The notes: generated by a model from the sequence alone, not told the origin. A DNA stretch of 64,000 nucleotides from an uncultured Acidobacteriota bacterium (GCA_963734095.1 CAVTGK010000019.1:11213-75212); one strand, 5' to 3'; shown: positions 39,394-64,000, counted from the stretch's first letter. Program-made: numbers and translations.

Positions 39394-39420
39394 AACTCGA
39401 AACGCAGTATGTAAACGTAC

Positions 39421-39509: not shown

Positions 39510-39537
39510 GTCGTCCTACGATCTATGGAAGATTGCT

Positions 39538-46542: not shown

Positions 46543-46581
46543 TGGCTTGTAACAGCTGAATGACGCCCAGCCCGCTTCGGA

Positions 46582-46671
46582 CTTCCGCCTGAAGGCGGAA
46601 GCCACGCGATAGCTTCGGTTATGTGGACTCGATGTTGTTTGTGACTCGTGGCTTCCGGCTTTAGCCGGAAG
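46582..46671. repeat. two similar GC hairpins with tetraloops (CTTCCGCC-tgaa-GGCGGAAG; CTTCCGGC-ttta-GCCGGAAG)
   Basis: Located at 46582-46601 and 46652-46671, in the gap between the two FtsX permease genes. No U-tract follows either hairpin. Confidence 0.8.
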
Positions 46672-46754
46672 ATCGAAGGGGCGATAGCGAATCAACTGAT
46701 ACACGCCACTGGCTATTTTGCTCGGCGCGCCCGGCGCGCCAGGAGAGAAAGACC

Positions 46755-48001: not shown

Positions 48002-48544
48002 TCAGGCATCACCGCCGAGTACTCTGCCCTCCCCCGCGCGCTTGGTCCACTGCCAAAGCCCCGCGGAAATGTCGTCCGGCAGCCGATGACCGAGTTGTCG
48101 TGCCAGCATCACGATTTGGCCTCGGTGGTGGCCCTCATGCGCGACGAAGTATGTCAGCACATGGGGGACGTCCAGAGGCAGGTTGCGCCAGACGTAGGCC
48201 TTCGTCGGGGGCACGTGGCCTCCCGCCGCCATGCCGAGTGCGAGGAGCGCTTCGATCCCCTTGCTGCTCCGCTTAAGGGCGGACAGCAATTCGTGTCGCG
48301 CGACGTTGCGGCGATCGACAGAGGCGGGGATGGCGATCCCGTGTTCCTGGCCGAGCGTCTTGATCCACATGCACCGGGCGTTGTGCAGATGCCCCGCGAT
48401 CATGCGGACCGTACGCCGCGGTGCCCCTGGAACGGAGGCATCCAAGAGTGCGGCGGGCAGATGCTCTACAAGGTACGCGGTGATCCGACTGTTGGTCCGC
48501 CAGGAGGCCAGCAGGGTCGCGCCTAGATCAGCTTGTGGGATCAT
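48002..48544 (-). CDS. DinB family protein
   Basis: ATG at 48544 (MIPQADLGATLLASWRTNSRITAYLVEHL). Has IAGHLHNAR and HEGHHRGQIVMLAR, the DinB His-triad pattern. Confidence 0.8.
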   Translation of the reverse strand: MIPQADLGATLLASWRTNSRITAYLVEHLPAALLDASVPGAPRRTVRMIAGHLHNARCMWIKTLGQEHGIAIPASVDRRNVARHELLSALKRSSKGIEALLALGMAAGGHVPPTKAYVWRNLPLDVPHVLTYFVAHEGHHRGQIVMLARQLGHRLPDDISAGLWQWTKRAGEGRVLGGDA

Positions 48545-48577
48545 CGCTGTGCTTGCGGCGGATTCTATAAGAAGTGA

Positions 48578-48630
48578 AACCTTGGAACTTTGGAACCTTG
48601 GAACCTTGGAACCTTGGAACCTTGGAACCC
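48578..48630. repeat. octamer array (AACCTTGG)x6
   Basis: aaccttgg aactttgg aaccttgg x4 then aaccc. It occupies most of the divergent gap between the DinB start (48544) and the GNAT start (48635). Confidence 0.95.
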
Positions 48631-48634
48631 TAAG

Positions 48635-49159
48635 GTGAGGATTCGGAAAGCAGAACTCGCGGATGCCGCGGCGGTCGCGGCGTTGGCCGAGCGAACGTTC
48701 CGCAACACCTTCGAGGCGGATAACACGCCCGAGGACATGGCCGAGCACTGCCGGAAGTCATACTCCGCCGAGATTCAGGCCGCGGAGTTGTCGAACCCCG
48801 ACATCGAGACACTCGTTTACGAAGCGCACGACGGCTCGTTCATCGCCTACGCACAGTTGCGAGCGGGGGCGCCTCCAGAGGTCACCGGGCCATCTCCCAT
48901 TGAGCTCTGGCGCTTTTATGTCGACCGTGCACATCATGGCCGTGGCGTGGCACAAGCCTTGATGGCTTCAGTGATCGACATTGCCGAAAACAAGGGCGCC
49001 CAAACACTGTGGCTTGGCGTTTGGGAACGCAATCCCAAAGCACGGGCGTTCTATCGCAAGGCTGGCTTCGTCGACGTTGGCGCTCACGAGTTCGTTGTCG
49101 GGCAGGACCTACAGACCGATCGTTTGATGGCGCGCCCGGTGCGACGTGAGGTCTGGTAG
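48635..49159 (+). CDS. GNAT family N-acetyltransferase
   Basis: GTG at 48635 (VRIRKAELADAAAVAALAERTF). LWRFYVDRAHHGRGVAQALM carries the Q/R-x-x-G-x-G/A motif. Also NPKARAFYRKAGF. Confidence 0.85.
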   Translation: MRIRKAELADAAAVAALAERTFRNTFEADNTPEDMAEHCRKSYSAEIQAAELSNPDIETLVYEAHDGSFIAYAQLRAGAPPEVTGPSPIELWRFYVDRAHHGRGVAQALMASVIDIAENKGAQTLWLGVWERNPKARAFYRKAGFVDVGAHEFVVGQDLQTDRLMARPVRREVW

Positions 49160-49176: not shown

Positions 49177-50706
49177 TCACCAAAGGAACCGTCTCCCCGC
49201 GGCCTCGTGCGCAAGCTGAAGGTGCAGCCCGAGACCCACGTCCTTTGGCAGGTATGGAATGTCGATGCGCGTGGCGTCAGATGCGCCTGCCGTATCCACA
49301 CGAACACGAGCCATCGCGGCTCGTCGATCGAATGGGCTGGCAGCAAGCGTGACGGTTTGAATCTTCGCAAGCCGCACGATACTGACACGCCGCCATAACC
49401 AGCCCGCACGAAAGAACACCGCATCCTCCGTCACAGCCCATCCGAGATGGGCGATCGTTCTGCGCGCACCGATGATGGCCCACGCCAGGAGCGCTGGCGC
49501 AAGCACCAGAGACCACATACCCATCAACGCGAAGAGACCGCTCTGCGCCAAGAGTGCGAGCACGATCCACCCTTTGACCTCTCGGCGGAAGGCACGGGGC
49601 GACACCGGCTGCCAAGCGACGGTGTCGAAGCCAGAGACGTCTGGGAGAGCCTGATGAATGAAGGCGGGAAGCGCCTCGCGACGAAGAATCGGGGCCAACG
49701 ATTCGCGCTCCCTTCCCCCACTACCCTCTTTGGGTTGGCCGCCTGCGGTGTCGGCCCTCACAGCCACGCGGCTGAACCATCGGTGCAGCGGACCTTCTCG
49801 GATGGTGAGCGTTTGAATACGACGCAACGGGATCGTCGCGGCCACGCGCGTCGTAAGACCGTACTCGCTGCGGAGGTCTCCCGCCGACAGCGAAAGGCGA
49901 AACCCATAGAGCCGCACGAGCGCCCAGATCATCGATAGGAACCGGACAAACAGCAGCAGACCAATGAACGCGAGCACCGAGATCGCGATGCGCTCGAACG
50001 CAATCTCGACATTGCTGAAAATGCCCCGGGCAAGATCGCGCACTATTCGACGACCCGACAATTCGCTCCCGAATCTCGACATGAGGCGATCGAACAGACC
50101 AAGCTCCCACACCAGACCAAATCCCGCGGCGATCAACACGCCGCCGCGGTTCTCGAGGAAGCCGCACAGTAGCAGCTCCTTGGGAGAAAGTTCGAGCAGC
50201 AACGCAGCGGGTGGCGCATCGACGACGACCGCCGTCGATTCCGCCGACTGCTCAGTCGCGAGTGCCTGGCGTTCGGCAAAGACGCGCGCGCGCATTTCCT
50301 GGAACGCACCGACCGGCAGCACGCTCATCGTGGCTTCAGGGGCTTGGCCACTGCCAGTTTCGACTCGCACCTCGACGACCTTGAGCAGACGATGGAGCAC
50401 GTTCTGAACCGCATCGACATTTTGGATGCGACCGTAGGGGATATGGCGCTCGCGACGGAAGACCAGGCCACTTCGAATCACCATCTCGTTGGCGTCGTAG
50501 CGATATCGGTACCAGACGTACCGAATCACCGCAACGGCGGCGTTCGGTATGACCAGCGCCATCATCCAAGGCTGCCACCAGTCGTTGCCGCCTCGCGAGC
50601 TGGCGCCAATCATCACCAAGAGGCCGGGCAGGATGAACGTTCGAATCTGGGCCAGGAACGCAAACAGCACGGACACGGGATGGAGGCGATGCTCAGACGG
50701 CATCAC
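49177..50706 (-). CDS. membrane protein with three bacterial PH (bPH_2/YdbT-like) domains
   Basis: Intact 509-aa ORF with repeated units of TM hairpins plus the pattern R..IPY.RIQ (RHIPYGRIQNVD, TIPLRRIQTLTI, VSIVRLAKIQTVTL). Confidence 0.7.
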   Translation of the reverse strand: MMPSEHRLHPVSVLFAFLAQIRTFILPGLLVMIGASSRGGNDWWQPWMMALVIPNAAVAVIRYVWYRYRYDANEMVIRSGLVFRRERHIPYGRIQNVDAVQNVLHRLLKVVEVRVETGSGQAPEATMSVLPVGAFQEMRARVFAERQALATEQSAESTAVVVDAPPAALLLELSPKELLLCGFLENRGGVLIAAGFGLVWELGLFDRLMSRFGSELSGRRIVRDLARGIFSNVEIAFERIAISVLAFIGLLLFVRFLSMIWALVRLYGFRLSLSAGDLRSEYGLTTRVAATIPLRRIQTLTIREGPLHRWFSRVAVRADTAGGQPKEGSGGRERESLAPILRREALPAFIHQALPDVSGFDTVAWQPVSPRAFRREVKGWIVLALLAQSGLFALMGMWSLVLAPALLAWAIIGARRTIAHLGWAVTEDAVFFRAGWLWRRVSIVRLAKIQTVTLAASPFDRRAAMARVRVDTAGASDATRIDIPYLPKDVGLGLHLQLAHEAAGRRFLW

Positions 50707-51184
50707 TGCTCTCCCGCGGCAGGAGCTGATCGCGGATCTCCAAGGCCACCTGGTGCTCGAGGCCGGGCAGCTCGACCCTCGAGTGCTCGGTACCAGCCGT
50801 GTGGATCAGCAGCCGACCGAGCCCATGTCTTCGCTCGAGCGGGCCCTGAATGACATCGGTGTGCTGCACCCTCGACCTTGGTACGTTGATCACACTTCGC
50901 CAGTACACGCCTCGGCGAATCTGAATGCCTTCCTCGTCGAGGCGGTACGACCAATGGCGGTACTCGATGGCGGGCCAGCGATGAAACAGCCTCGCCAACA
51001 CCGAGGTCCCGATGACCCAGAGAACCACACACCAGATCCACCGCCGCGGCGTCAGAAGCACGACGAGACCGACAGCCAGGCCCAACGACATTGCCGCCGT
51101 CATGATGTACCCCACATCACGCTGCAGCGTGATGTAGCGTGGATCGAGGGACAGCTCGACGTCGGCGCTGGCGGGTGTTGTCAC
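50693..51184 (-). CDS. bacterial PH domain membrane protein (YdbS-like)
   Basis: Intact 163-aa ORF that overlaps the downstream YdbT-like gene by 14 nt: WSYRLDEEGIQIRRGVYWRSVINVPRSRVQHTDVIQGPLERRHGLGRLLIHTAG. Confidence 0.7.
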   Translation of the reverse strand: MTTPASADVELSLDPRYITLQRDVGYIMTAAMSLGLAVGLVVLLTPRRWIWCVVLWVIGTSVLARLFHRWPAIEYRHWSYRLDEEGIQIRRGVYWRSVINVPRSRVQHTDVIQGPLERRHGLGRLLIHTAGTEHSRVELPGLEHQVALEIRDQLLPRESSDAV

Positions 51185-51211: not shown

Positions 51212-51728
51212 TTACGTCGGCCATTCAGCGTCGGGTTTGCCGAACCATGCCCAGGCGATGTAGTCCACGAGTGGTGGCTCGGCGCCGAGTTTCCCTCAAT
51301 CGAGTGTTGACTTGCCCTCGGTGATAGGTGGTGTGGCTCGTGACCTGAAAGCAGGTATCCGCCAGCGTCGTCGCATGTGGAGTCGTCCCCAGACGGTCGG
51401 CGATCATCTGCGCCCACGGCAGATTCATCGGCGCCGTAAGGCTCTCGTCAGTAAGACCTTGAACAAAAGTCGCCATCTCTTCGTACAGGGGCTGCGCCCA
51501 GGATCGAACGGCGCCCAGCGTCTCGAATTCCTCCGCTCGTTTGAACGCGTCGGTCACGGGACGGCTGGTCCACGCCGAGAAGAAGGCACGCTGAACCACG
51601 TGAATGTGGACCAGCAACTCTCGAAGCCGCGTGTCGGGTTGTCCGCTGAGGGGAGTGGCCTTCCAGACCGTGGCATCCGCCCACTCCATGTGACGGTACA
51701 ACTCCATCAACGCCGGTTGAGACCACAT
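51212..51728 (-). CDS. DinB family (damage-inducible) protein, one frameshift near the 3' end
   Basis: ORF 51225..51728 (LYRHMEWADATVW...LVHIHVVQRAFF...SHTTYHRGQVNTRLRE). Removing one base from the TTT run at about 51290 gives LGAEPPLVDYIAWAWFGKPDAEWPT with a stop at 51212. Confidence 0.75.
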
Positions 51729-51764: not shown

Positions 51765-53465
51765 ATGCTCGATACACTGCGCCAACTCCGGGCGGTGCTC
51801 ACGGTCGACGAGCGGCGCCAATGGCTAGGCCTGTTGCCCCTTGCCGCGTTGGCCGTCCTACTCGAAGCCGCGGGCGCCGCAGCGCTCGTCACCTCCATCG
51901 GCCGAGCGCTCGGGACACCAGGAACCGCAGGTCAGGCGGCCTTTCTGGCCGTCTTGCTGACCGCGGTCTTCGTGTTGCGGGGCGCCGTGATGGCCGCCGT
52001 CGTGAAACGACGGGAGCGAGCCGTTGCCGAAACCATCAGCCGCTTGACCGCGCGGATGCTCGACGGCTACCTCCGCGCGCCGTACCAGACCATGATCGAC
52101 CGCCACTCGTCGCTGACGGCGCAGCGTGTGACCCAGACCGTCGAGCAGGTCGTCACGCTCAGCCTGGTCGGAAGTTTTACCGTTGCGATTGAGCTCTTCG
52201 TCGCGGTTGCGGTCGTGATCGTGCTGCTGATTGCGACGCCGCTGGCCGCCCTGTCGGCCGTCGCCGCGACGACGGCTCTCGTGGCGGGGGGACTGATGCT
52301 GGTCAGGCCGCGGTTTGCGACCTGGAGCACACAACAGCTCAACCTGCACCAGCAATCGATGAAGGAATTGCAAGAGGGGTTTGGCGCCCTCGCCGAGCTC
52401 AAGGTTCTGGGGACCGAGCCGTTCTTTCATCAACGGATTTCCAACGACCGCCGTAGCCTGGCGATGCTCCAGGCCCGTCGTCGAACGCTCGCCGAGCGGC
52501 TTCGGATCGCAATCGAAACGACCGTGCTCGCAGCAATGCTGCTGTCGGTGGTCGTCGTCGTGCTCGATGGCATGTCCGCCGCCACTGCGGTTTCGGTCCT
52601 CGGGCTGTACACGTACGCCGGACTGCGCCTCGTGCCCTCGGCCAACCGCATCGTCGCCAATATCGGGTTGGTGCGCTCGGGTCGGGCCTACCTGTCGGAT
52701 CTGCATGATGAATGGCAATGGCTGTCGCTGCTGCCGCCCGCATCCGCTGAGGCGCCATTCCCACTCCGACTCGACTCGACGATTCGTCTCGAGAATGTTG
52801 GCTTCGACTATCCAGAAGCAGAGCGGGTGGCAGTCCGCGACCTCGAGATCACGATTCGCCGCGGTGAGGCTATCGGCTTGGTTGGGCCGATCGGTGCGGG
52901 CAAGAGCACCGTGATGAAGCTTCTACTCGGATTGCTGCGACCGACCCACGGTCGAATCCTGGTCGATGGGATCGACCTTCAAACGCGTCTGGCCTCCTGG
53001 CAGCGTGCGCTAGGTTATGTGGCCCAGAAACCGTATCTCATCGCTGACACCATCCGTCGAAACATTGCTTTTGGTCAGCCAGAAGTCACGATCGACGAAG
53101 GCGCCGTCCGCTGGGCAATACACACCGCCGGACTTGATCCCGTGGTGGATCGCCTCCGCGATGGCATCGACACCGTGCTGAGCGAGGGTGGCGGCGGCCT
53201 CTCTGGCGGCGAGCAGCAGCTGCTCGCGATCGCCCGCGCGCTCTATCGTCGGCCGGCGATCCTGCTGCTCGACGAACCCGCCGCGTCGCTCGATCCCGTC
53301 TCACGATCCACGATCGACAGCGTCCTCGCGGCGTTGAAGGGTAACGTGACCATCGTAGCGGTCAGCCATCGTCCCGATGATCTGCCGTGGTGCGACCGAA
53401 TCCTCGAGATGCAGAGTGGACAGCTGGTTGGCTCCGATTACCGGCCCTCGCAATTCCAGAGATGA
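51765..53465 (+). CDS. ABC exporter, fused TMD-NBD half transporter (MsbA/type-I exporter-like)
   Basis: Intact 566-aa ORF with six predicted TM segments, then GPIGAGKSTVMKLL (Walker A), LSGGEQQLLAIARAL (signature) and ILLLDEPAASLD (Walker B). Confidence 0.85.
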   Translation: MLDTLRQLRAVLTVDERRQWLGLLPLAALAVLLEAAGAAALVTSIGRALGTPGTAGQAAFLAVLLTAVFVLRGAVMAAVVKRRERAVAETISRLTARMLDGYLRAPYQTMIDRHSSLTAQRVTQTVEQVVTLSLVGSFTVAIELFVAVAVVIVLLIATPLAALSAVAATTALVAGGLMLVRPRFATWSTQQLNLHQQSMKELQEGFGALAELKVLGTEPFFHQRISNDRRSLAMLQARRRTLAERLRIAIETTVLAAMLLSVVVVVLDGMSAATAVSVLGLYTYAGLRLVPSANRIVANIGLVRSGRAYLSDLHDEWQWLSLLPPASAEAPFPLRLDSTIRLENVGFDYPEAERVAVRDLEITIRRGEAIGLVGPIGAGKSTVMKLLLGLLRPTHGRILVDGIDLQTRLASWQRALGYVAQKPYLIADTIRRNIAFGQPEVTIDEGAVRWAIHTAGLDPVVDRLRDGIDTVLSEGGGGLSGGEQQLLAIARALYRRPAILLLDEPAASLDPVSRSTIDSVLAALKGNVTIVAVSHRPDDLPWCDRILEMQSGQLVGSDYRPSQFQR

Positions 53466-54647
53466 TGTCGCGACCAAGGGCGCCGAAACCGAACGCTGCG
53501 CTGCAAATTGTTCAGCTCAATCTGGCGTACGACAGTTCGCTGGCCAGTCCGGAAACGCTTCTCGAGACTTACCACACGCTGACCGGATGGAGTCGCGCCG
53601 TCGGCCGCGCAGGGGCCACGGTGCACGTCGTTCAACGCTACTCGCGCAACGCTCGACTGGATGAGGGCACGGTCGCGTATGAATTCGTCGGTGAGGGCGC
53701 AGATGGCACCCCCGCGCCCTGGACTTGCTTTGATCGTGTGCTGGGGGCTGTCGAAGACGCTCGGCCAGATGTCGTTCACGTCAATGGCTTGATGTTTCCA
53801 GGGATGGTAGCCGCGCTTCGAAAGAGGCTCGGGCAAGGTGTCGCGATCGTCCTACAGGACCACTCGGGTCACGTGCCGCGCGTACTGGCGCCCTTACGCG
53901 TGTGGACGACCAGCCGATGGGGGCGGGCTTTCGGCGCGGCGGATGCAGTGACGTTCACTGCCCGCGAACTGGCAGACCGGTGGCATCGCGTGGGGCTTCC
54001 TCGTGACATCACCGTCCTTGAAATTCCGGAAGCCAGTACGGAACTGGAGCCCGCACCCGGAGCGGCTCGCACCGGCGCCGACCCTTCCCTATCGATCCTG
54101 TGGGTCGCCCGCCTCACTGCAGAACAAAGATCCGATGACCGCATTGGCGGCATTGGAGTTGGCGTTGCCCGCCCTCCCACACGCACGCTGCGCGATGGTG
54201 TTCCAGGGCGGTGAACTGGAGACCGTTGTCACCGAACGAATTCGGGCGACGCCCATGCTGGCCGGCCGTGTCATCCCCATTGGCAGAGTGCCCCACAACG
54301 CGCTACCTTCCTACTACGGCGCGGCGGACGTTTTCCTGAGCGCGAGCCATCACGAGGGAAGCGGATACGCCCTGATCGAATCCATGGCTTGTGGCGTGAC
54401 CCCCTGCGTCACCGACATCCCGGCCTTTCGAGCGCTGGCCGGAGAGTGCGGACGCCGTTGGCGTGTTGGCGATGCGCATGCCGCGGCGGCGGCACTGATC
54501 GATCTTGCCGCTGGCAATCAACAACACGCACGCTTGATGGTTCGCGCACGCTTCGAACGCGCGTTGAGCTGGGACGTCATCGGCAGGCAGACCGTGAGCG
54601 CGTATCGAGCTCTGTCAGAACAACGACGGGAGGGGACATCGCGATGA
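53462..54647 (+). CDS. GT4-family glycosyltransferase, one frameshift
   Basis: ATG at 53462 overlaps the exporter stop. ORF 53387..54214 (IVQLNLAYD...VVHVNGLMF) joins ORF 54003..54647 near 54100 (YYGAADVFLSASHHEGSGYALIESMACGVTP, the E-x7-E type motif). Confidence 0.75.
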
Positions 54648-55762
54648 AGATCGCCATAGTCGTTACCGGTGGCCTGCATCCCAGCGGATCGGAACAGGTT
54701 GTGCCGGCCTGGCTGTGGCTGATTCAACGATTGTCAGCTGCCAACGAAGTGCACGCGTTTGCGTTGCGCCACCTGCCCGAACCGGCGCAATACCAGCTCG
54801 CCGGCGCCACCATTCACGACCTGGGCCGACCCGAGGGGCGATGGGCACAGTGGAAGGCGCTTCATCGCGCGTTGATCACAGCGGGGCCATTCGATGTCAT
54901 TCACGGGTTCTGGGCCGATCCGGCTGGCACGCTCGCGGCGGTCGCAGGCCGCCGTCTCGGTATCCCGAGCGTCGTGACGTGCGACAGCGGCGAATTCAGC
55001 TCGATACCCGCAGTCGGTTACGGCTCCCAGCAGTCGGCGCCCGGCCGCGCAGCCGTGGCGCTAGCTTGTCGTCTTGCAACCCGTGTGCATGTTACGACCC
55101 GGTTCATGGAGACGCGGGCAGCTCCGTACGCCGCACACGTCGCGCGGATCCCAATCGGTGTTGACCTCGAGTCCATCTCAGCCCCCGCCAGCCGTTCCGA
55201 TGGGCCACCCTGGCGTCTCCTCCAAGTGGCGAGCCTCAATCGTGTGAAGGATCAATCGACATTGCTCGAGGCGGTTGCGATTGCTCGGCGCAGTATCAGT
55301 ATCAAGCTCGACCTGGTCGGCGAAGACACGCTTGGCGGAAAGCTGCAACGCGAGGCAACGTCCAACGGACTCTCTGGAAGCGTCACCTTCCATGGTTTTC
55401 AGCCGCATGATGCGGTCATGCGCTTCTACCGATCGGCCCACCTGTATGTCCAGTCGTCACGTCATGAAGGTGGCGGCATCTCGGTACTCGAGGCGGCGGC
55501 CGCGCGCCTTCCGATCGTGGGGACACGCGTGGGGCATGTGAGCGATTTCGAGCCGCACGCCGCCGTCGCCGTGCCGCCCGGCGACGCCCACGCGCTTGCT
55601 GACGCCATCGTCCGAACACTTCGCGATTCCCTTGGGCGCCGGACGATTTCCGCACGTGCGAGGCAGTTTGCGGAATCCCATGACGCCAACTGGACGGCGC
55701 AGCAATTGCTCGCGCTGTACAGAATCGCTCAAACAGCCACAATCGGCTTAACAAACCCTTAA
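54644..55762 (+). CDS. GT4-family glycosyltransferase
   Basis: ATG at 54644 overlaps the upstream stop (ATGA). MKIAIVVTGGLHPSGSEQVV...LYVQSSRHEGGGISVLEAAAARLPIVGTRVG. Confidence 0.8.
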   Translation: MKIAIVVTGGLHPSGSEQVVPAWLWLIQRLSAANEVHAFALRHLPEPAQYQLAGATIHDLGRPEGRWAQWKALHRALITAGPFDVIHGFWADPAGTLAAVAGRRLGIPSVVTCDSGEFSSIPAVGYGSQQSAPGRAAVALACRLATRVHVTTRFMETRAAPYAAHVARIPIGVDLESISAPASRSDGPPWRLLQVASLNRVKDQSTLLEAVAIARRSISIKLDLVGEDTLGGKLQREATSNGLSGSVTFHGFQPHDAVMRFYRSAHLYVQSSRHEGGGISVLEAAAARLPIVGTRVGHVSDFEPHAAVAVPPGDAHALADAIVRTLRDSLGRRTISARARQFAESHDANWTAQQLLALYRIAQTATIGLTNP

Positions 55763-55799
55763 CAGGGCCTGTCCCCCGATGACAGGGACTGTCCCCCGG
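55762..55799. repeat. ACAGGGCCTGTCCCCCGATG + ACAGGGACTGTCCCCCGG (2 copies)
   Basis: The first copy is identical over 20 nt to 36365-36384. It fills the convergent gap between the GT4 stop (55760-55762) and the radical SAM stop (55804). Confidence 0.9.
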
Positions 55800-55803
55800 A
55801 CCT

Positions 55804-56937
55804 TCACACGCTTGCCCACACCGGCAATGACAGCGAGCAGACGCAGCGCTGGCACGTGGCATTCGTCCGAACGTCCAGCGTCCGGCGAAAGGCGATCGCC
55901 TCGGTCGAGTTCAAGACAACGTCGAGGGATGAGTTGGCGCTGGATGGATAGAACGGATGAAAGAAGCAGGGCCTCACGCGATTGTCGGGCTCGAGCACAG
56001 CCGACGTCCAGGGGGCATTGCAACGCACGTCCGGAAACGCGCCATGTCCCAACAAGGCGCGAAAGTACTCGAGGATGCGCCAAAGAGAGGGCATCCCACC
56101 GGCAATGAAGCCGCTGGCTACCAAATCCCGACAGCTCGCCTCGACCGCGCGAATCGATCGTTCGAGCGCCAGCAGCTCATCGTCGGACAGCGCCACCTCA
56201 CTCCGCCGTGCAGTGTCCCACGGCTCGGGACGATTGAACGCCATCGAGCTGACGTCGGCCGCAAGAAATGACAGACGATCGACGCCGAGCCCGTGAACGG
56301 CTCGCGTGGTTTCGCTAAGACACGCGTGGTTCAATCGCTGAACAACGCTGCGGACGATGATCCTCGGGCGCGCTGGTGCAGCCGCCAATACTTTGCGCAG
56401 GCCCTTTTCGATGCGATCGAATGCGTGCGGCACGCGCCGGATCTCGTCGTGCACGTCCGGCGGTCCGTCGATCGACACCACGAGATCATCGATCGCTCGC
56501 GCGATGGAGTCGGCATGAGGTTCGACGAGTAGTCCGGTCGTCACCAGCGTGACGCGGATGCCTTCGCGGCGCAGCCGGTCGCACAGGACCCAGAGATTGC
56601 GATGGAGGAGCGGCTCGCCGCCGGTCAGCATCACGCGCTGCACGTGCAGCCGACGGATCGCGTCGATATGGCGTTCGAGCTCGTCGAGGCCAATCTCGCG
56701 CTTGTCGGCGTTGGCCTTCCAGATGTCGCACATCACGCAGCGGCAGTTGCAGGCGCTGTGGACCGACAGCGCGAGGATCGGCAGCGACCGCAGCTGACCG
56801 CTCCATCCTCCGACACTACGTCTGACGATCTCGGTGACTGGAACCATAGCGTCAACTAAAGCCAAGGTGCCGGAGCAAGCGTCTGGAAGCGCCAACCTCG
56901 AGGCAACTATCCGAGGCAGCCCACGAGGCACACGCAC
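55804..56937 (-). CDS. radical SAM protein with C-terminal SPASM/twitch-like Cys-rich domain (alternative start ATG 56847)
   Basis: SVHSACNCRCVMCD (Cx3Cx2C), VMLTGGEPLL, and C-terminal CNAPWTSAVLEPDNRVRPCFFH...ATCQRCVCS. Confidence 0.8.
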   Translation of the reverse strand: MRVPRGLPRIVASRLALPDACSGTLALVDAMVPVTEIVRRSVGGWSGQLRSLPILALSVHSACNCRCVMCDIWKANADKREIGLDELERHIDAIRRLHVQRVMLTGGEPLLHRNLWVLCDRLRREGIRVTLVTTGLLVEPHADSIARAIDDLVVSIDGPPDVHDEIRRVPHAFDRIEKGLRKVLAAAPARPRIIVRSVVQRLNHACLSETTRAVHGLGVDRLSFLAADVSSMAFNRPEPWDTARRSEVALSDDELLALERSIRAVEASCRDLVASGFIAGGMPSLWRILEYFRALLGHGAFPDVRCNAPWTSAVLEPDNRVRPCFFHPFYPSSANSSLDVVLNSTEAIAFRRTLDVRTNATCQRCVCSLSLPVWASV

Positions 56938-57038
56938 AGCATCTCGCCAGAGGCCTGGTCGTCCCGCGCGAAGCTGTGACGGGGGCGCTTCGTGGCGGCC
57001 GTTGACCTTGTTCCATCCTCAAGGAGCCTGGAGCTTCG

Positions 57039-58556
57039 CTAGAAGCCACTGGTCTCGGGCCGCTGGTATGGAAGCAGACGCTGCAGAAGCCGCAGCTCGA
57101 GCGGGTAGCGATACCATCGCAGGCGGTAGCGCCAGGCGCTGGCGGCGTGCAACACGAGACGGGCCGCGCGAGTGAGCCCACGGTCCGTCACCGTTGGATA
57201 GTAGGCATTGAGCACGCGCTCGAAATCGTGAAGTTCGCGCCGCAGCGGCTCCTCAATCCAAGGAAGGGTCCCGCTTCGGCGCTGAGAAAACTCGCGCCAT
57301 GACGAGCTGGTCCACTCCTCGAGCGTGTTCGGAAAGCGGAACCCGGCTGCGGTGGCCTGCTCGTACAGGTTGCCCTGCAGCGGCACCGGCGTATAGAGGT
57401 ACATCACGATCTCCGACGCAGGGTTGATGCGTTTCAGTTTCCTGATAAACGCCAGCGTCTGGCGTGCATCATCCTCCGGATCCGGAGGATTGCCGACCAC
57501 GAACGAGAACTCGGGCACAATCCCGTGTGATTTCATCAGCGCCGCGATCTCGAGCGTCTTGTCCGCTGATGCCGTGCCCCCTTTGCGCATGCGCTGCAGC
57601 GTGGCATCAGACCCTGACTCGGCTCCCAGATACACCATCCGCAGCCCGCTGGCAGTCAACAGCCGCCAGGTGCGTTCGGACGACTTGAGGAGGGTGTCCA
57701 CCCGCGCTTCGCCCCACCACCCGATTCCCAGCGGACGGATTCGTTCGGCAAACTCCACAGTACGATCTTCATGAACAAAGAAGTTGTTGTCGTAGAACTC
57801 GACAGCGTTGACACCAAAGCGATCGACCAGCTCACGGACTGTTCCAGCCGTTCGCTCAGCGGACTGAGGGAGCCAGGCGCCGTTCACCATGTTGACCACT
57901 GCACAGAAATTGCAGAAGAACGGGCAGCCGTAGCTGGAATGGTGTGGAATCGTCCGATCGCCCATGAAGGTGCGGCGGATGTAACGCGACATGTCCACGC
58001 GGTGATAGGGAAAGGAAGGCAGCCGTTCGGGGTGTGGAATGCGGGAAAGACCCGAGTCCACAACGTGGTCCGTCTGCCGGTCGCGATAGGCAACGCCAAT
58101 CCGATCAGTCGGCTCCGCGCCACGCGTCAGTTCGCCGACAAGATCGCGAAAGACCAACTCCCCGTGGCCGCGCACCACGAAATCGACGAAGGGCGCCTGC
58201 AGGCACGTGGCGACGTGTTGCGTCGGGAAATACCCGCCCCAGACGATTTGCAGCGTCGGATGCCGCGTCTTGAGTTCCCGACAGAGCGGAACGGCGTCAT
58301 CGAGCTGCGGGCCGGGCATCACCGTGACACCGAGGACTGCTGCGCCGGTTTCGCGAATCTGGCGGTCCAGTTGCTGGAGCGGACGTGGCTCGATGTTCCC
58401 ATCGACGATCAGATAGTCCTCGTGCCCCTCAAGGACAGCGCCAAGCGCCAGCAGAGACATCGGCAGGATCGGCTTCCGGGTCGCCGAGCTGCGCGGATTG
58501 TAGAGGATGATCATCCGCGCACTTTCGCGAAGCTCCGCCTCAAGCCGTCGGAACAC
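57039..58556 (-). CDS. B12-binding-domain radical SAM protein (class B), paralog type 2 (D)
   Basis: Intact ORF. N-terminus MIILYNPRSSATRKPILPMSLLALGAVLEGHEDYLIVDG with the rSAM cluster SSYGCPFFCNFC and YLGAESGSDATL. Closest in-window relative is 60725..62143. Confidence 0.8.
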   Translation of the reverse strand: MFRRLEAELRESARMIILYNPRSSATRKPILPMSLLALGAVLEGHEDYLIVDGNIEPRPLQQLDRQIRETGAAVLGVTVMPGPQLDDAVPLCRELKTRHPTLQIVWGGYFPTQHVATCLQAPFVDFVVRGHGELVFRDLVGELTRGAEPTDRIGVAYRDRQTDHVVDSGLSRIPHPERLPSFPYHRVDMSRYIRRTFMGDRTIPHHSSYGCPFFCNFCAVVNMVNGAWLPQSAERTAGTVRELVDRFGVNAVEFYDNNFFVHEDRTVEFAERIRPLGIGWWGEARVDTLLKSSERTWRLLTASGLRMVYLGAESGSDATLQRMRKGGTASADKTLEIAALMKSHGIVPEFSFVVGNPPDPEDDARQTLAFIRKLKRINPASEIVMYLYTPVPLQGNLYEQATAAGFRFPNTLEEWTSSSWREFSQRRSGTLPWIEEPLRRELHDFERVLNAYYPTVTDRGLTRAARLVLHAASAWRYRLRWYRYPLELRLLQRLLPYQRPETSGF

Positions 58557-58584
58557 AGGGCCCTCCGAAGGCTGGCTTCATGTG

Positions 58585-59322
58585 TCATCGCTCGGGCCTT
58601 TGAAGATGTCCGCGTGCAGCCGGCGCGTCTGGGCCGATCTGATACACGGTCAGCACTTCGCTCTTCAAGTCACGTGTGCACACAGCCGCGACGCTCAACC
58701 CGCTGGAGCGAAACGCGTCGAGGGCACTACTTGTATTGGCCTCCGTTGACAACACGACGAGCGCTGCGCCCTCGGGAGTGAGGTGGTCAGCGAGACCGCG
58801 GGCGAACCGCTCGATGACGTCTCCCCCTCGGAACGCCCGATCGAGCAGGCCGCGCGGCGTACCTGCGAGGTACGGCGGATTGAACAGGACGAGGTCGAAC
58901 CGCTCGCCGCGAACCGGCTCGAAGAGATCGCCTTCGCGGATGTCCACCCGCGCCTCGACGCCGTTGAGCAGGACATTGATGCGAGCGCAGCGGACAGCCA
59001 CGGGGTTGATATCGACCGCCACGACCCGCGCGGCCTCACGGGCGGCGACCACCGCACTGAGTCCGGCCCCCGTTCCCATGTCGAGCACCGCCGATCCGTT
59101 CGCCAGTCGCCCCTCCAGCGACTCGGCGAGGAACTCTCCGGCTCCGAACAGCTTGGGATTGATGACTTGAGGCAGGACGACAATCGGACGTCCAGCCACC
59201 TCCTCCAGCACGAGGCGATCGTGGCGGTGACGGTGGAACAACTGAAAGCGCCACCACAGCATGCGGCTCCAGGCGGCGCGCGACAACCGCTCGGCCATCG
59301 GCGCGTAATTGACCGTCATCAT
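58585..59322 (-). CDS. SAM-dependent methyltransferase, HemK/MTS-like with NPPY motif
   Basis: ATG at 59322 overlaps the upstream stop (ATGA). Motif I is VLDMGTGAGLSAVVAA. Also VAVDINPVAV and LVLFNPPYL, the NPPY amino-methyltransferase motif. Confidence 0.8.
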   Translation of the reverse strand: MMTVNYAPMAERLSRAAWSRMLWWRFQLFHRHRHDRLVLEEVAGRPIVVLPQVINPKLFGAGEFLAESLEGRLANGSAVLDMGTGAGLSAVVAAREAARVVAVDINPVAVRCARINVLLNGVEARVDIREGDLFEPVRGERFDLVLFNPPYLAGTPRGLLDRAFRGGDVIERFARGLADHLTPEGAALVVLSTEANTSSALDAFRSSGLSVAAVCTRDLKSEVLTVYQIGPDAPAARGHLQRPER

Positions 59323-60725
59323 GGGTAACCCGCTCCGCGACCCTCGGAAAGCGTCATCCCGATCCGACCCACGACCGCCGAGGTCGCCGCGCGTGCCGCG
59401 CGTGCGTAAGCTCCCCGTTGCCAATACTGATGCCGCGCCACCTCACCACTGATCCACCGACGGGCGAAGTCGTAGTACCGCCGCGACGGACGATTGGCGA
59501 TGTTCAGATCTCGGTCGGTGGTCTCCGCCCAGGATCGGGGCGCCGCCAGGTGGGACGACACCTGGTCGTAGTACGGCGTCCCCTTGATGGGATACGACAC
59601 GGTCGTCAGAAAGATGTCAGGGGCCGTACGCTTCAGGTGCTCGACCGTCGCGCGCAGGTCGTCCGTGCGCTCGCCGTCGTAGCCCAGCATGATGAACATG
59701 CCAACCTCAATGCCACGCCGTCGCAGGCGCGCGGTCGTGTCGACGACTCGCTCGATGTCCACCCGACGCTGCATCGCGTCAAGGATTCGCTGCGATCCGC
59801 TTTCCGCGCCGATCCACACTCGCCAGCAGCCGAGATCGCGAAAGGCGTCGGCCACTTCGTCGTCGATGCGCTCGGCGCGTGAAATGCACTCGAATGGCAG
59901 GTGCAGCCCGCGCCGCTGCAGCTCCGCAGCGTAGGCGAGCGTCCATCCGCGATGAATGCCGAACACGTCGTCCGCATACCAAAGCCGATCGGGCCGGTAC
60001 CGTGTCCAGATCTCTTCAACTTCGTCCGCCACGTTGGCGGGCGACCGTCGCCGATGGGTCGTGCCGAAGACCGATCGACTGCACCACGTGCAGGTATAGG
60101 GGCAACCGCGCGCCGTGATCAACGACACCGGCCCGAAGCCGTGATGCTCCCGCCATACGGCCAGGTAGCGCGTGAGATCGACGGCGGCACGATCGGGAAA
60201 GGGTTGGCGGTCGAGATCAGGAATGAGTACACGGGGAGGGGTCCGGATCACTGCAGACCCGCTGGCCAGCCCCAGATCTCTCGAAACAATGCCGGGAACA
60301 GTCGCCAGCGCCGCGGTGTCGCCGGAGAGAAGATGCGGCAATAGCTCTTCGAGCGTTTGCTCCCCTTCACCGATGACCACGACGTCGGCGCCGGCATCGA
60401 GATACTCGGCCGCGTAGTGCGGCGGATCCGGGCCGCCAACGACGACACGTGCGCCCGCGGCCCGTGCGATCGCGATCATCCGCAGGGCGTGACGCTTGGT
60501 CATCAAGTTGACGGCGATCCCCACAACCGGTGGACGCTCCCGGTCGAGAGTGCGCCGAAAGTCGTCGACCGTCTGGAAGGTGCTATCGAAGACGCCAACG
60601 TTCACGCCGCGCGCCTTGAGATATGACGACAGGTACAGGAGCCCAAGCGGCGGATGCGGCCGCATGATGCTTTGCTCGTCGGCGTCTTCCGACAGAAAAA
60701 ACCCGTGTGCCAGCAACAAGTCCAT
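59319..60725 (-). CDS. B12-binding-domain radical SAM protein (class B), paralog type 1 (C)
   Basis: ATG at 60725 (MDLLLAHGFFLSEDADEQSIMRPHPPLGLLYLSSYLKARGVNVGVFD). TARGCPYTCTWC and WIGAESGSQRILD. The longer ORF start at 60896 would overlap the upstream gene. Confidence 0.8.
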   Translation of the reverse strand: MDLLLAHGFFLSEDADEQSIMRPHPPLGLLYLSSYLKARGVNVGVFDSTFQTVDDFRRTLDRERPPVVGIAVNLMTKRHALRMIAIARAAGARVVVGGPDPPHYAAEYLDAGADVVVIGEGEQTLEELLPHLLSGDTAALATVPGIVSRDLGLASGSAVIRTPPRVLIPDLDRQPFPDRAAVDLTRYLAVWREHHGFGPVSLITARGCPYTCTWCSRSVFGTTHRRRSPANVADEVEEIWTRYRPDRLWYADDVFGIHRGWTLAYAAELQRRGLHLPFECISRAERIDDEVADAFRDLGCWRVWIGAESGSQRILDAMQRRVDIERVVDTTARLRRRGIEVGMFIMLGYDGERTDDLRATVEHLKRTAPDIFLTTVSYPIKGTPYYDQVSSHLAAPRSWAETTDRDLNIANRPSRRYYDFARRWISGEVARHQYWQRGAYARAARAATSAVVGRIGMTLSEGRGAGYP

Positions 60726-62143
60726 CACGACACCTGCTGCGGCGGGCGCATCAGCTCCACCAGGGCCTTCTCGATCGGGAAGGCGTACCAATCGCGATCG
60801 CACCGCCAGCGCGATGCCGCCCGCAGCGGCCAGCGCCACACACCCGGCTGCCAGACATGTCGCGCGTAGAACTTGAACCGCTCGACGTTGCGCCATCGCT
60901 CAGCGGAGATCCACGGACCACGGCCCGCGACATAGTCGAAGTTCGCCCACGCTTCCAAACCACGCGGGAACTCGTAACCAGATGCACGCGCTGCGTCGGC
61001 AATCGGGTTGCCGGGATAGGGACGGTAGTAGAAGATGGGGGTTTCGAAGCGCGGGTGCATCCGCCGCAGTCGTTTCGCGAGCGCCAGGGTCTGATCCACG
61101 CTCTCTTCCGGCTCCCCGGGGAATCCAACGATGAAGTTGAAGATGGCGCTGACGTCGTGATCCGCACACATCTGAGCGGCGATCATGACCTGATCGAGCT
61201 GCAGGTCCTTCTTCAGTCGATCGAGCGTCGCCTGCGAGCCGGACTCGACGCCGACCATCACCCGTGTCAACCCCGCTCTCACACACTTCTGGAACAGCGG
61301 CGCTCCCATCCGACAGGCCTGGTCGGCCCTGAGCGTGGCTGTCCACGCAATCCCCAGGCTTCGACGTAAGAACTCGTCGGCCAGACGGTCGATTCGGGCC
61401 GCGTGCGTAAAGAAGGTCTCGTCCTGAAACGCGATCTCCTGAACGTTGTACTGACGATCGAGCGAAGCCACTTCGTCGGCGATGCGTTCGGGAAAGAGTC
61501 CCGTCCACCCGCGCGCGTACACCGCAGGGTCGGCGCAGAACGCACAACGAAAACGGCACCCTTGGGACGAAATGTAATCGACCTGGCGCTTGCCCTTGAG
61601 CGCGAAATACCGTTCGACCTCGATGAGTGAGTAATCGTGGGAGGGGAGGTCGTTGAGGTCACGCAGTGTGCGGGGTGGACCGCTGATGATCTCGCGACCA
61701 GCGCGCACGAGGGTACCCGGGCACCCCGCGACCGACTCGTTTCTCAACCGCCGCTCGACGAGCTCGCGCAGTGTTTCCTCGCCCTGGCCCAGCACCGCCA
61801 CGTCAATCGCTTCGTCCTCCAGGCATTCGCCGGCAAACAGCGACGGATGCCAACCGCCCCACACCACCGGACAGTCCGGGTGGGTCGCTTTGACCGCGCG
61901 AGAGACGGCCAGGGCATCTCGAATCGGTGCGCCGGTCAGAACACTGACGCCGACCAGCAACGCGCCCTCGCTCGCCTCGACCACTCTCTTGATGGGATCG
62001 GATTCGAGCCGACCATCGATGATCACCACGTCGACATCCGTCCGACGCAGCGCCGACGCGAGCGCAACGAGCGCGAGCGGCATCGTGTAGAACACCGCTC
62101 GTGGGTTGTACAGCACGACTCGCCGGCGACCGTCGGCTCTCAT
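60725..62143 (-). CDS. B12-binding-domain radical SAM protein (class B), paralog type 2 (B)
   Basis: ATG at 62143 (MRADGRRRVVLYNPRAVFYTMPLALVALASALRRTDVDVVIIDG). SSQGCRFRCAFC and MVGVESGSQATLD. The rest of ORF 60725..62728 upstream of this ATG is R/A-rich and overlaps the preceding gene. Confidence 0.8.
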   Translation of the reverse strand: MRADGRRRVVLYNPRAVFYTMPLALVALASALRRTDVDVVIIDGRLESDPIKRVVEASEGALLVGVSVLTGAPIRDALAVSRAVKATHPDCPVVWGGWHPSLFAGECLEDEAIDVAVLGQGEETLRELVERRLRNESVAGCPGTLVRAGREIISGPPRTLRDLNDLPSHDYSLIEVERYFALKGKRQVDYISSQGCRFRCAFCADPAVYARGWTGLFPERIADEVASLDRQYNVQEIAFQDETFFTHAARIDRLADEFLRRSLGIAWTATLRADQACRMGAPLFQKCVRAGLTRVMVGVESGSQATLDRLKKDLQLDQVMIAAQMCADHDVSAIFNFIVGFPGEPEESVDQTLALAKRLRRMHPRFETPIFYYRPYPGNPIADAARASGYEFPRGLEAWANFDYVAGRGPWISAERWRNVERFKFYARHVWQPGVWRWPLRAASRWRCDRDWYAFPIEKALVELMRPPQQVS

Positions 62144-63643
62144 GAGACGCTGCGTCCGTTGGACATCGGGGTCAGTTGCGGCGTGCTGACGCGCGCCAGT
62201 CGCTGCAGCCGTCGGCGAGCGAACGGCAACGCCGCGCGGTTGTAGGCCCAGGAGGCGACCTGACGCAGGTCGGACGCGCGGGCGATCGACGGCCGGGCGG
62301 CGAGCGACCGCAGGCGGCGTGCAACGTGTCTCGCGCGAAACTCGTAGTGCACCACGTGGTGCAGCGCGCGATAGAACGGTGGTGCGTAGGTCGCCCGATA
62401 CATCATGGCGAGATCGTCGGAGTCGAACCAGTTCTGTTTCTCGCCGAGATCGGCCCGGACTCGCTCGTAGAACTTGGTGCCGGGCAGCGGATAGGACACC
62501 GAAACACCGATGTCTTGTGGCCCGATCTCTCGCACGAGACGAAGCGTGGCCTCGACGTCCTCCCACTGCTCGCCGGGGTAACCAAACTGCAAAAAGAGTC
62601 CGACGTCGATGCCACGCTGCTGGAGCGCGGTGGCCGCTTCGCGAATCTGCTCGACCCGGACACCTTTCTCCATCGCATCGAGCACACGCTGCGAGCCCGA
62701 CTCGGCGCCCATCCACACCATGCGGCACCCCCCGGCGACGAGTGCGCGCGCGACATCATGGGTGACCTGGTCCGCTCGCATCAAGCATCGAAACGGCACC
62801 TTGAGGCCGCGTTGCTGCATCAGGTCGGCGAAGCGCTCGACCCAACCGGGCTGCAGCCCGAACACGTCGTCGACCACCGTCAGTTGGTCGGGCGCATAGC
62901 GCTGTTTGAGCCACGCGATCTCGTCCACGACATTGGCGGGGCTGCGCACCGCATAGCGCTGCCCGTAGATCGGCTTTGCGCACCAGTTGCAATGAAACGG
63001 GCAACCACGCGTCGTGGCGAGATTCATGGCGTGATACCCGTGCCGTCGCCGCCACAGCGAGCGGTAGCGCTCGACGTCTATCAGATCCCACGCCGGGATC
63101 GGGAGCTCATCGAGCGCGCGGACGAACGGGCGCGTCGGCGACCGCCGAACCGATGCGTCCTCGTCAAGGAACGCCACACCCGCGACGTCCCCTGGCAATC
63201 CGCCCCGCAAGAGCGTGGCGATCAGCTCAGAGAGCGTGATCTCGCCTTCTCCCAGGACGACCGCAGACGCGCCAGCGCGCAGGTACAACTCGGGTCGATC
63301 GGTCGCATCGGACCCTGACACGATGACCCGGCAGCCTCTCGACAACGCCAGCTCGATCATGCGGAGGGCCGCCTGCCGCATCCGCAGGAGGCACATTTTC
63401 GTCAGGTAGTTGAAGCTGTCCTCGTAGATGACGGCAAATCGCGGGTTGAGCGCGGTCGAGTGCCGCGGCCCACTCCGATTCGTCAGTGGCCAACATCGCA
63501 TCGAAGAAGGCGACCGAGTGTCCGGTCGAGCGAAGACACGATGCGGCGTAGAGCGTGCCAAGCGGCGCGTACGGCTGTTGCGCTTGCCACAGCTTGGCGT
63601 CGAACCGCAGGTAGTACGCTTGCCCGAGAAGAACGTCATGCAT
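62140..63643 (-). CDS. B12-binding-domain radical SAM protein (class B), paralog type 1 (A), one frameshift
   Basis: ATG at 63643 (MHDVLLGQAYYLRFDAKLWQAQQPYAPLGTLYAASCLRSTGHSVAFFD, ORF 63227..63715). A frame change near 63440 leads into ORF 62140..63708 (TTRGCPFHCNWC, WMGAESGSQRVLD). Confidence 0.8.
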
Positions 63644-64000
63644 GAGCCGCGCTCTGTTTCTCGAAATGGAGCAGGACGTGGTCGCCAACGCGATTGAACG
63701 GCGGCCACGGAGCAATCCAGGTATCGAGGCGCGTCACCACACCTCGGACAGACTTGGGCAGCGAGCGCCAGCGCGGCTCCAGGTACGGTGGCGGAACCGC
63801 GACGCCGATGCCTTCGACGGCGGCGAGCGACAAATCAGGGCCCAAGGCGGAGCGCACGTCCGCAATCCGGTGATAGAACGTCGGAACCTCGACACCGGCC
63901 ACCGAAACCGACACGGGACCCTCCACGCGTCGCCGACTGGCCATGTCGGGTCGACGAGTCGCCAGGAAGTAGAGCACTTCGAGCGCGCACGTGCGGGCCA
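63636..64000 (-). CDS. class I SAM-dependent methyltransferase, C-terminal part only (5' end beyond the window)
   Basis: The frame is open to the window edge: ...ARTCALEVLYFLATRRPDMASRRRVEGPVSVSVAGVEVPTFYHRIADVRSAL...GIGVAVPPPYLEP...GDHVLLHFEK. This resembles the tail of a methyltransferase family. Its stop overlaps the next gene's start by 8 nt. Confidence 0.5.
   Translation of the reverse strand, partial: ARTCALEVLYFLATRRPDMASRRRVEGPVSVSVAGVEVPTFYHRIADVRSALGPDLSLAAVEGIGVAVPPPYLEPRWRSLPKSVRGVVTRLDTWIAPWPPFNRVGDHVLLHFEKQSAAHA

Follow-up and report, generated by a model that had tools for sequence, protein, structure and literature searches.

Radical S-adenosylmethionine (SAM) enzymes (rSAMs) of class B have a B12-binding Rossmann domain at the N-terminus and, after it, a barrel with a CxxxCxxC motif; among them are the C-methyltransferases GenK, GenD1, Fom3, TokK and CysS, which are encoded in antibiotic gene clusters. 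A lipid-attached sugar is remodelled by an rSAM in the hopanoid HpnI-HpnK-HpnJ pathway (glycosyltransferase, deacetylase and a B12-domain rSAM that performs a ring contraction) and by archaeal calditol synthase, and in the archaeal gms-grs-gmm cluster a SPASM/twitch rSAM is grouped with several B12-binding rSAMs that target the isoprenoid chains of a membrane component (PMC11214058). Here we describe a gene cassette that shares features with each of these systems, and that occupies positions 51,765-64,000 of a stretch of 64,000 nucleotides (the window) from an uncultured Acidobacteriota bacterium (GCA_963734095.1 CAVTGK010000019.1:11213-75212). Within it lie four class B rSAMs (A to D), a SPASM-type rSAM, two methyltransferases, two GT4 glycosyltransferases and an ABC exporter. 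The original prediction had called this an unassigned, multi-step radical tailoring system, and offered as its target a methylated ribosomal peptide, the alkyl chains of membrane lipids, or a glycan or glycolipid. As an unassigned system it stands, since none of the rSAMs of the cassette reaches an NCBIfam equivalog cut-off, the cluster motifs are conserved, the genes are strongly co-conserved, and no characterised syntenic pathway was found in the literature searched. Of the three targets a glycan or glycolipid is clearly favoured, and we consider the chances somewhat better than even that the cassette performs radical tailoring of a lipid-linked glycan or glycolipid, a product and a set of reactions that we infer.

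The likeness to the class B C-methyltransferases goes beyond the order of their domains, as the predicted structure of B superposes on TsrM, OxsB, TokK, MgmA and CysS, and several paralogues in one locus suggest successive methylations. However, the relationship is remote (PDB E-values of 1e-6 to 1e-20, with no NCBIfam score above its cut-off), the setting is a Wzx/Wzy_C/GT4 locus rather than an antibiotic gene cluster, and the cassette proteins are 50-60% identical across phyla, which is unusual for secondary metabolism. HpnJ is the best NCBIfam match of A, and some of the related loci have glycosyltransferase and PIG-L modules similar to those of the hopanoid pathway, but the scores stop at 126 bits for HpnJ (cut-off 577.6) and at 102 bits for HpnR (650), no squalene-hopene cyclase or hpn genes lie nearby, and four class B rSAMs with a SPASM enzyme stand against a single rSAM in that pathway. 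The archaeal tetraether cluster, compared here by description and neighbourhood rather than by sequence, has the same grouping of SPASM/twitch and B12-binding rSAMs, yet neither glycosyltransferases nor flippases are found there. These three (GenK/GenD1/Fom3, HpnI-HpnK-HpnJ and the tetraether cluster) are the nearest working analogies, and membership fails in each case on score or on neighbourhood. The cassette also resembles Wzx/Wzy loci for O-antigen, exopolysaccharide or protein O-glycosylation, and the GT4 plus GT-C assemblies of phosphatidylinositol mannoside (PIM) and lipomannan type, with which it shares a MOP flippase, Wzy_C, several GT4s, variable accessory transferases and module swapping, although no priming phosphoglycosyltransferase, Wzz, Wza or Wzc was found. 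Four cobalamin-type rSAMs in a Wzx/Wzy-type locus are not described in the literature searched, and neither is the cassette itself, including in 2026 reviews of B12-dependent and lipid-modifying rSAM enzymes.

Genes were called from a list of open reading frames (ORFs) and their translations, domains were assigned with Pfam and family models with NCBIfam. All ten genes that had been named from the DNA alone were found in this way on the predicted strands and at essentially the predicted positions, together with the four cluster motifs (CPFHCNWC, CRFRCAFC, CPYTCTWC and CPFFCNFC) and the FNPPY motif of one methyltransferase:

51765-53465, plus strand: half-size ABC exporter of 566 amino acids (aa); Pfam ABC_tran 105 bits and ABC_membrane
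53462-54647, plus strand: GT4 glycosyltransferase GT4a, split by a one-base insertion; Glyco_transf_4 (N-terminal) and Glycos_transf_1 (C-terminal) in two frames
54644-55762, plus strand: GT4 glycosyltransferase GT4b; Glycos_transf_1 98.8 bits and Glyco_transf_4
55804-56937, minus strand: SPASM/twitch-like rSAM, last gene of the minus-strand operon; Radical_SAM 74.5 bits and SPASM 23.7 bits
57039-58556, minus strand: class B rSAM D; B12-binding 53.6 bits and Radical_SAM 49.2 bits
58585-59322, minus strand: NPPY-motif methyltransferase (NPPY-MT), HemK2/MTQ2 family; MTS 66 bits and TIGR00537 99.6 bits
59319-60725, minus strand: class B rSAM C; Radical_SAM 75.9 bits and B12-binding 68.1 bits
60725-62143, minus strand: class B rSAM B; B12-binding 64.6 bits and Radical_SAM 61.7 bits
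62140-63643, minus strand: class B rSAM A, split by a one-base insertion into two frames; domains taken from the intact orthologue in locus L006
63636-64000, minus strand: class I SAM methyltransferase MT1, C-terminal 120 residues from the translation, truncated by the window edge

The ABC exporter heads the plus-strand unit and its stop overlaps the start of GT4a, and on the minus strand stop and start codons abut or overlap from MT1 through the NPPY-MT gene. What lies past 64000 was taken from the relatives L005 and L006 (97-98% DNA identity) and from many more distant loci. In L006, an Acidobacteriota contig from a metagenome-assembled genome (MAG) with 98% DNA identity to the window, the operon opens with an O-antigen-ligase-like Wzy_C membrane protein of 591 aa (4687-6462; 37.6 bits, cut-off 31.7; 60.5 bits for Wzy_C in L042), followed by a third GT4 (GT4u), whose TGA stop overlaps the GTG start of MT1, and then by MT1 and the series A-B-C-NPPY-D-SPASM. 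A Wzx-type flippase (3202-4536; Polysacc_synt 69.4 bits), found also in L001, L002, L042 and L041, and a protein that we call hyp358 are transcribed divergently from this operon. The full cassette therefore reads hyp358, Wzx / Wzy_C, GT4, MT, A, B, C, NPPY-MT, D, SPASM / GT4b, GT4a, ABC, of which the window is roughly the distal two thirds. The 5' end of the operon, where the original prediction had suggested looking for a precursor or scaffold gene, is thus recovered through near-identical relatives as Wzy_C and GT4, and no conserved precursor gene was found there. By the same comparison, the convergent layout described for the window is right as to strands but incomplete, as Wzy_C, GT4, Wzx and hyp358 lie upstream and outside it, and the class I assignment of MT1 is borne out by its full-length L006 orthologue (7664-8509; Pfam Methyltransf_12, _23, _25 and _11), the fragment in the window having no Pfam match of its own and the SAM-binding part being seen in the relatives only. 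In the L006 Wzy_C protein a large loop (residues 328-405) separates the transmembrane blocks and gives a weak Ig-like match (N_BRCA1_IG 25.6 bits, cut-off 28), and its homologue in L079 has 1004 aa.

A scan of one genome per GTDB species with B found relatives in 389 species; the 80 best loci were retained, and genes were counted by tblastn with the cassette proteins in the 40 loci of at least 20 kb. Among these 40, A was present in 34, C, MT1 and D in 33 each, hyp358 in 32 and the SPASM-type rSAM in 30, followed by the upstream GT4 (26), GT4b (25), GT4a (21), Wzy_C (20), Wzx (17), NPPY-MT (10) and the ABC exporter (3). The core of hyp358, rSAMs A-D, the class I methyltransferase and the SPASM-type rSAM is co-conserved in at least eight phyla, and was found in Acidobacteriota (mostly Vicinamibacterales), Chloroflexota (Anaerolineae, Ardenticatenales, Herpetosiphonaceae, Thermomicrobiaceae and Ca. 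Amarolinea), Gemmatimonadota, Rhodothermales, Cytophagia, KSB1, Latescibacterota and Armatimonadota, as well as in Calditrichaceae and Chthonomonadaceae. Between phyla the rSAMs are 50-60% identical. B is the most conserved gene of the cassette, with more than 3000 homologues, many at 70-87% identity, and when a cultured carrier was sought by a profile search with Chloroflexota-type and other distant B homologues, the best 120 matches were all MAG or metagenome proteins. Conservation of this gene set across phyla is beyond chance, so that the adjacency of the genes, for which the original prediction had also considered accident, is not fortuitous.

Three observations on the glyco-genes in particular suggest what the rSAMs act on. 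First, the rSAM, Wzy_C and GT4 genes form one packed operon with overlapping stops and starts. Second, such genes accompany the core far outside the Acidobacteriota: with iterated local hidden Markov models (HMMs), GT4 was found in 34/40 of the full-length loci, Wzx in 22/40 (local HMM), and at least one of GT4, Wzx or Wzy_C in 37/40, and the non-homologous neighbours at distant loci add, by Pfam, Wzy_C, Polysacc_synt_3, GT2, GT87, PMT_2 (GT-C), a PIG-L deacetylase and a double-GNAT acyltransferase, the PIG-L and GNAT genes being absent from the window lineage. Third, hyp358 is fused to GT4u in L041 (2419-5154; Cytophagia), L043 (6406-8529; Gemmatimonadota) and L061 (3685-5985), and it directly adjoins GT4u in several other loci; since the two are joined in a single polypeptide, their activities are tied together. 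The hyp358 protein itself (317-358 aa) has no Pfam match and an invariant G-S...D-x-D signature; a sequence search of the PDB gave no match, and its predicted structure (predicted local distance difference test score, pLDDT, of 84) is most similar to MNT/AadA nucleotidyltransferases, a weak match (E 0.012). None of the glycosyltransferase, hyp358, Wzx or Wzy_C proteins reached an NCBIfam cut-off, and the best matches of GT4u, all sub-threshold, are to the MSMEG_0565, MshA and BshA families. In contrast to this widely shared set, the ABC exporter is limited to the window lineage and L007 (3/40 full-length loci) and is a lineage-specific add-on. It has full-length but sub-threshold NCBIfam matches to CydD, HepA, PglK and MsbA, scores 180 bits with NHLM ABC models whose cut-offs are 709-853, and consists of transmembrane and ATPase domains only, with no C39 peptidase domain by Pfam or NCBIfam.

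The N-terminal B12-type domain attributed to all four large rSAMs was confirmed, each of them having Pfam B12-binding and Radical_SAM matches, for A by way of L006: the intact protein there scores 36.5 bits for B12-binding (PF02310, cut-off 32.1 bits) and 70.3 bits for Radical_SAM, while the frameshifted A of the window reaches only 23.5 bits for B12-binding. Loss of the cluster residues would have spoken against these enzymes; the CxxxCxxC cysteines are instead 100% conserved in 57 (A), 76 (B), 46 (C) and 45 (D) aligned sequences. The four fall into two pairs of paralogues, A/C (40% identical) and B/D (31% identical). Among solved structures A is nearest to MgmA (4e-20) and AprD4 (5e-15), and D to AprD4 (1.4e-13). 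For B, the one member of A-D included in the fold comparison, an AlphaFold model (pLDDT 76) matched TsrM (E 1e-18), OxsB, MgmA, TokK, AprD4 and CysS with template-modelling (TM) scores of ~0.6-0.65 over ~400-465 columns, that is over its full length, which identifies the two-domain fold of class B. Homologues of B are labelled in public databases as 'anaerobic Mg-protoporphyrin IX monomethyl ester cyclase', 'YgiQ' or 'B12-binding radical SAM protein', of which the first two are almost certainly wrong for the cassette homologues. Despite the four B12-domain enzymes, no Rfam family, cobalamin riboswitches included, was detected in the window, L006, L002, L035, L042 or L048; a tRNA search found none, and in promoter and terminator scans sites were no commoner than in shuffled sequence.

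The SPASM-type enzyme passes the PF13186 model marginally (23.7 bits against a cut-off of 21.5). In 28 sequences ten of its cysteines are invariant (L006 numbering: C51, C53, C55, C58, C107, C294, C312, C350, C353 and C355), among them six beyond the ligands of the rSAM cluster. The C-terminal pattern is C-x17-C ... C-x2-C-x-C plus C107, a spacing that differs from the canonical CX9-15GX4C ... CX2CX5CX3C ... C, and these conserved cysteines are predicted to suffice for at least one auxiliary cluster. Its closest solved relative is the cytosylglucuronate decarboxylase BlsE (E 1.8e-15, residues 44-239), a radical SAM enzyme that acts on a sugar acid; unlike BlsE, it has its own C-terminal cysteine pattern, the match is limited to the radical SAM core, and TIGR04466 gives 64 bits against a cut-off of 400. 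With BlsE nearest to the SPASM enzyme, and with AprD4, a diol dehydratase of aminoglycosides, among the best solved matches of A and D, these relatives may lend some weaker support to a sugar substrate.

Of the methyltransferases, NPPY-MT carries an FNPPY motif and belongs to the HemK2/MTQ2 family (TIGR00537, 99.6 bits against a cut-off of 87), although its operon context argues against a release factor as substrate. It travels with a D-type rSAM as a module, and that of the window lineage has its nearest homologues in Chloroflexota (63-69% identity for D). In L007, the nearest relative from beyond the lineage of the window, and in most Vicinamibacterales this module is replaced, between rSAM C and the SPASM gene, by a different D paralogue (~47-51% identical), a methyltransferase of 217 aa and an amidohydrolase. 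Surface-glycan loci typically exchange modules in this way while the rest of the locus stays syntenic. The best matches of the amidohydrolase, all sub-threshold, are nucleobase, 5'-deoxyadenosine and S-adenosylhomocysteine deaminases, from which we infer that it may clear by-products of the rSAMs; a role as scaffold enzyme is disfavoured, removal of rSAM by-products being the more economical explanation of deaminase-type matches. A further variation is seen in a Cytophagia-type subgroup (L041, L061, L062, L065 and in part L060), which has a reduced rSAM set with copies of B and D only, and adjoins a type III polyketide synthase, a DUF5777 beta-barrel, a c-type cytochrome, a cupredoxin-like protein, an EEP-family protein and GT87. 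This subgroup may be a distinct variant with a link to phenolic lipids.

From this gene content we can sketch how a lipid-linked glycan or glycolipid would be made. At the cytoplasmic face GT4u, GT4a and GT4b would add sugars to a membrane lipid carrier or acceptor, with GT4u working together with hyp358. The four cobalamin-type rSAMs, as the pairs A/C and B/D, could then modify one or more residues at unactivated carbons, most likely by C-methylation, with a ring contraction similar to that of HpnJ or a dehydration similar to that of AprD4 as alternatives, and the BlsE-like SPASM enzyme might carry out a further radical step on the sugar, for example a decarboxylation, oxidation or epimerisation. 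MT1 would add an O- or N-methyl group, and the HemK2-type NPPY-MT would probably methylate an amide or amino nitrogen. The finished unit would be moved across the membrane by the Wzx flippase, and in the window lineage perhaps also by the PglK/MsbA-like ABC exporter, after which the Wzy_C protein would polymerise it or ligate it to a final acceptor.

Several of our observations nonetheless sit uneasily with tailoring of a glycan or glycolipid. Cobalamin binding and methyl transfer by A-D are predicted from sequence. AprD4 possesses a B12 domain but does not use cobalamin, and the fold alone is therefore no proof of cobalamin use. The matches to BlsE and AprD4 are remote, and structural matches discriminate poorly here because few class B structures have been solved. 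Among solved structures A comes closest to a protein glutamine C-methylase, MgmA, and the family of the NPPY enzyme is likewise one of protein glutamine methyltransferases. Moreover, in the 21 kb of each locus examined we saw no gene for an initiating phosphoglycosyltransferase, for chain-length regulation or for outer-membrane export, and no initiator of the WbaP/WecA type or chain-length and export proteins are among the annotated genes of L001, L002, L006, L035, L042, L048 and others, although these could be encoded elsewhere in the genome. As seen at the loci, a classical Wzx/Wzy pathway thus lacks some of its parts, and a glycolipid or lipoglycan may be a better fit than a classical Wzx/Wzy polysaccharide. 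Finally, every carrier that we found is uncultured, and the cassette is hence linked to no chemistry.

More tentatively, and with a confidence that falls a little short of even, we propose that several cobalamin-dependent rSAMs act in succession on a lipid-linked sugar to give an undescribed sugar, or glycolipid head group, which is carbocyclic or bears several C-methyl groups, that this is a common envelope component of abundant uncultured bacteria of soil, sediment and activated sludge across at least eight phyla, and that it would be the first such pathway. If true, bacterial surface glycans would gain a new kind of chemistry, the radical, cobalamin-dependent formation or rearrangement of C-C bonds on sugars, and a role would be assigned to several abundant unannotated B12-rSAM families (B alone has its >3000 close homologues in metagenomes). 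The carriers, among them Vicinamibacterales, Anaerolineae, Ca. Amarolinea and Gemmatimonadota, dominate soils and wastewater sludge, and a shared envelope structure that demands cobalamin would matter for B12 ecology, for floc and biofilm properties, for phage receptors and possibly for biomarkers.

The alternative that survives best, though we regard it as unlikely, is lipid tailoring, in which the class B rSAMs and the SPASM enzyme would methylate, cyclise or cross-link alkyl chains, for example to place the mid-chain methyls of branched tetraethers or iso-diabolic acid, with the GT4s adding a head group. Its positive support as a candidate in the original prediction comes down to the analogy with archaeal genes for modification of glycerol dialkyl glycerol tetraethers, which combine a SPASM/twitch rSAM (Gms) with B12-rSAMs (Grs and Gmm) (PMC11214058), and we can add that GT4 with GT87 or PMT_2 resembles PIM-type glycolipid assembly, that the lack of a priming phosphoglycosyltransferase at the loci would likewise suit a glycolipid, that a type III polyketide synthase adjoins the cassette in four Cytophagia-type loci, and that TIGR04072 (a lipid-biosynthesis B12 rSAM) and HpnR give sub-threshold matches. 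All lipid-family NCBIfam scores are, however, three- to six-fold under their cut-offs, and in 84 loci we found no fatty-acid, ether-lipid or polyprenyl genes. Among the gene families present in at least five loci, which are mostly annotated by Pfam except for one small family without a Pfam match (145-169 aa, five loci), no rSAM family recurs besides A-D and the SPASM enzyme that could be a candidate for tes or mss, so that no clustering with a tetraether or membrane-spanning-lipid synthase is seen, whereas bacterial gms homologues are reported to cluster with tes or mss (PMC11214058). The hyp358-glycosyltransferase fusion and the PIG-L and GNAT genes also point to sugar chemistry. The more specific and more far-reaching idea that the cassette rSAMs supply the methylases or cyclases still missing for branched membrane-spanning lipids of bacteria we consider a long shot; if the lipid variant held in place of the glycan one, it would be relevant to a question of long standing, namely which organisms produce branched tetraether lipids and methylate them.

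Slightly less probable again is modification of a peptide or protein, in a proteusin-like or a protein-maturation pathway, where the four rSAMs would C-methylate side chains and the NPPY enzyme would N-methylate Asn or Gln amides, before glycosylation and export. MgmA, which methylates a glutamine of methyl-coenzyme M reductase and is the best solved relative of A, fits this idea, as do the HemK2/MTQ2 score of the NPPY enzyme, the sub-threshold matches to the ApyD and TIGR03975 families of RiPPs (peptides made by the ribosome and modified after translation), and the presence of an ABC exporter in the window. Wzy_C proteins also include protein O-oligosaccharyltransferases (PglL family), and the polytheonamide genes PoyA-I similarly unite several B12-rSAM C-methylases with a further rSAM and an amide N-methyltransferase. 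In contrast to the latter, the cassette sits among glycan genes and has no precursor gene of the NHLP or Nif11 leader type, LanM-type dehydratase, protease or peptidase-ABC transporter, and the exporter that it does have, present in so few loci, is without the C39 peptidase domain. Neither were RiPP recognition element (RRE) leader-binding genes or YcaO genes found. When 2381 small ORFs from the 84 loci were compared all against all, no family was common to the cassette, although a precursor or protein substrate could be encoded elsewhere; the recurrent ones were antisense artefacts and one clade-specific protein (cupredoxin-like, ~120-136 aa, with a signal-peptide-like N-terminus, in four Cytophagia-type loci), and no conservation was seen for the small ORFs of L001, L002 and L004. 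A RiPP, as proposed from the DNA alone, is therefore left with no positive support from the loci themselves.

We give a still lower probability to a soluble small molecule, such as a thiol, a pseudo-oligosaccharide or a cofactor, built by the logic of mycothiol, bacillithiol or aminoglycosides, tailored by the rSAMs and exported by the membrane proteins. Modules of GT4, PIG-L and double-GNAT recur in several loci, the sub-threshold matches of GT4u are to the families named above, the predicted structure of hyp358 resembles aminoglycoside nucleotidyltransferases, and rSAMs of the BtrN, GenK and AprD4 types act in aminoglycoside pathways. But the window lineage is without PIG-L and GNAT genes, the resemblance of hyp358 to nucleotidyltransferases is a weak one, genes for a cyclitol synthase, an aminotransferase or a ligase were not found, and Wzx and Wzy_C act on lipid-linked rather than soluble substrates. 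Anti-phage defence can be dismissed as far as the PADLOC models reach, their matches being at superfamily level only (ABC ATPase, viperin rSAM core and methyltransferase core).

It should be noted that two of the genes named from the DNA alone, rSAM A and the first GT4, are present in the window but each is frameshifted and lies in two frames. In A the frame changes between the N-terminus (ATG at 63643) and the body (stop at 62140) through one extra base at ~63442-63445 relative to L005 and L006, and in GT4a there is one extra base at 54120 relative to L006. Because both genes are intact in L006, where the GT4a orthologue has 419 aa, and because other genes of the window are frameshifted too (at least four in 64 kb, counting A and GT4a), these breaks are probably assembly indels rather than marks of pseudogenes. 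The other two are an aldehyde dehydrogenase, split between overlapping ORFs in different frames (36396-37337 and 37279-37902) that cover positions 1-273 and then 282-460 of the Pfam profile, and a PQQ_2 beta-propeller, split likewise between overlapping ORFs in different frames (33715-34515 and 34490-35476). A MacB-type ABC system at 44714-47945 comprises an ATPase, a full FtsX/MacB_PCD permease and a second permease ORF that matches the C-terminal part of MacB_PCD only, and which may be another frameshifted gene.

The remainder of the window includes, at ~23000-41000, a neighbourhood of purine and pyrimidine catabolism with a transthyretin/HIUase-DUF6986 fusion (23074-24762), an allantoicase (27030-28196), a cytosine/purine/allantoin permease (30501-31946), a DHO_dh-like protein, an amidohydrolase (37963-39393) and a class III aminotransferase (39505-40872). 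The genes to the left of 51765 (DinB, bPH_2 and the MacB-type ABC system) are unrelated to the cassette. Immediately beside it is a pair of genes with a bacterial PH domain (bPH_2; 509 and 163 aa, 49177-51184), flanked by two DinB-family genes (48002-48748 and 51225-51728), and in L001 a DinB gene is found at the same border of the cassette.

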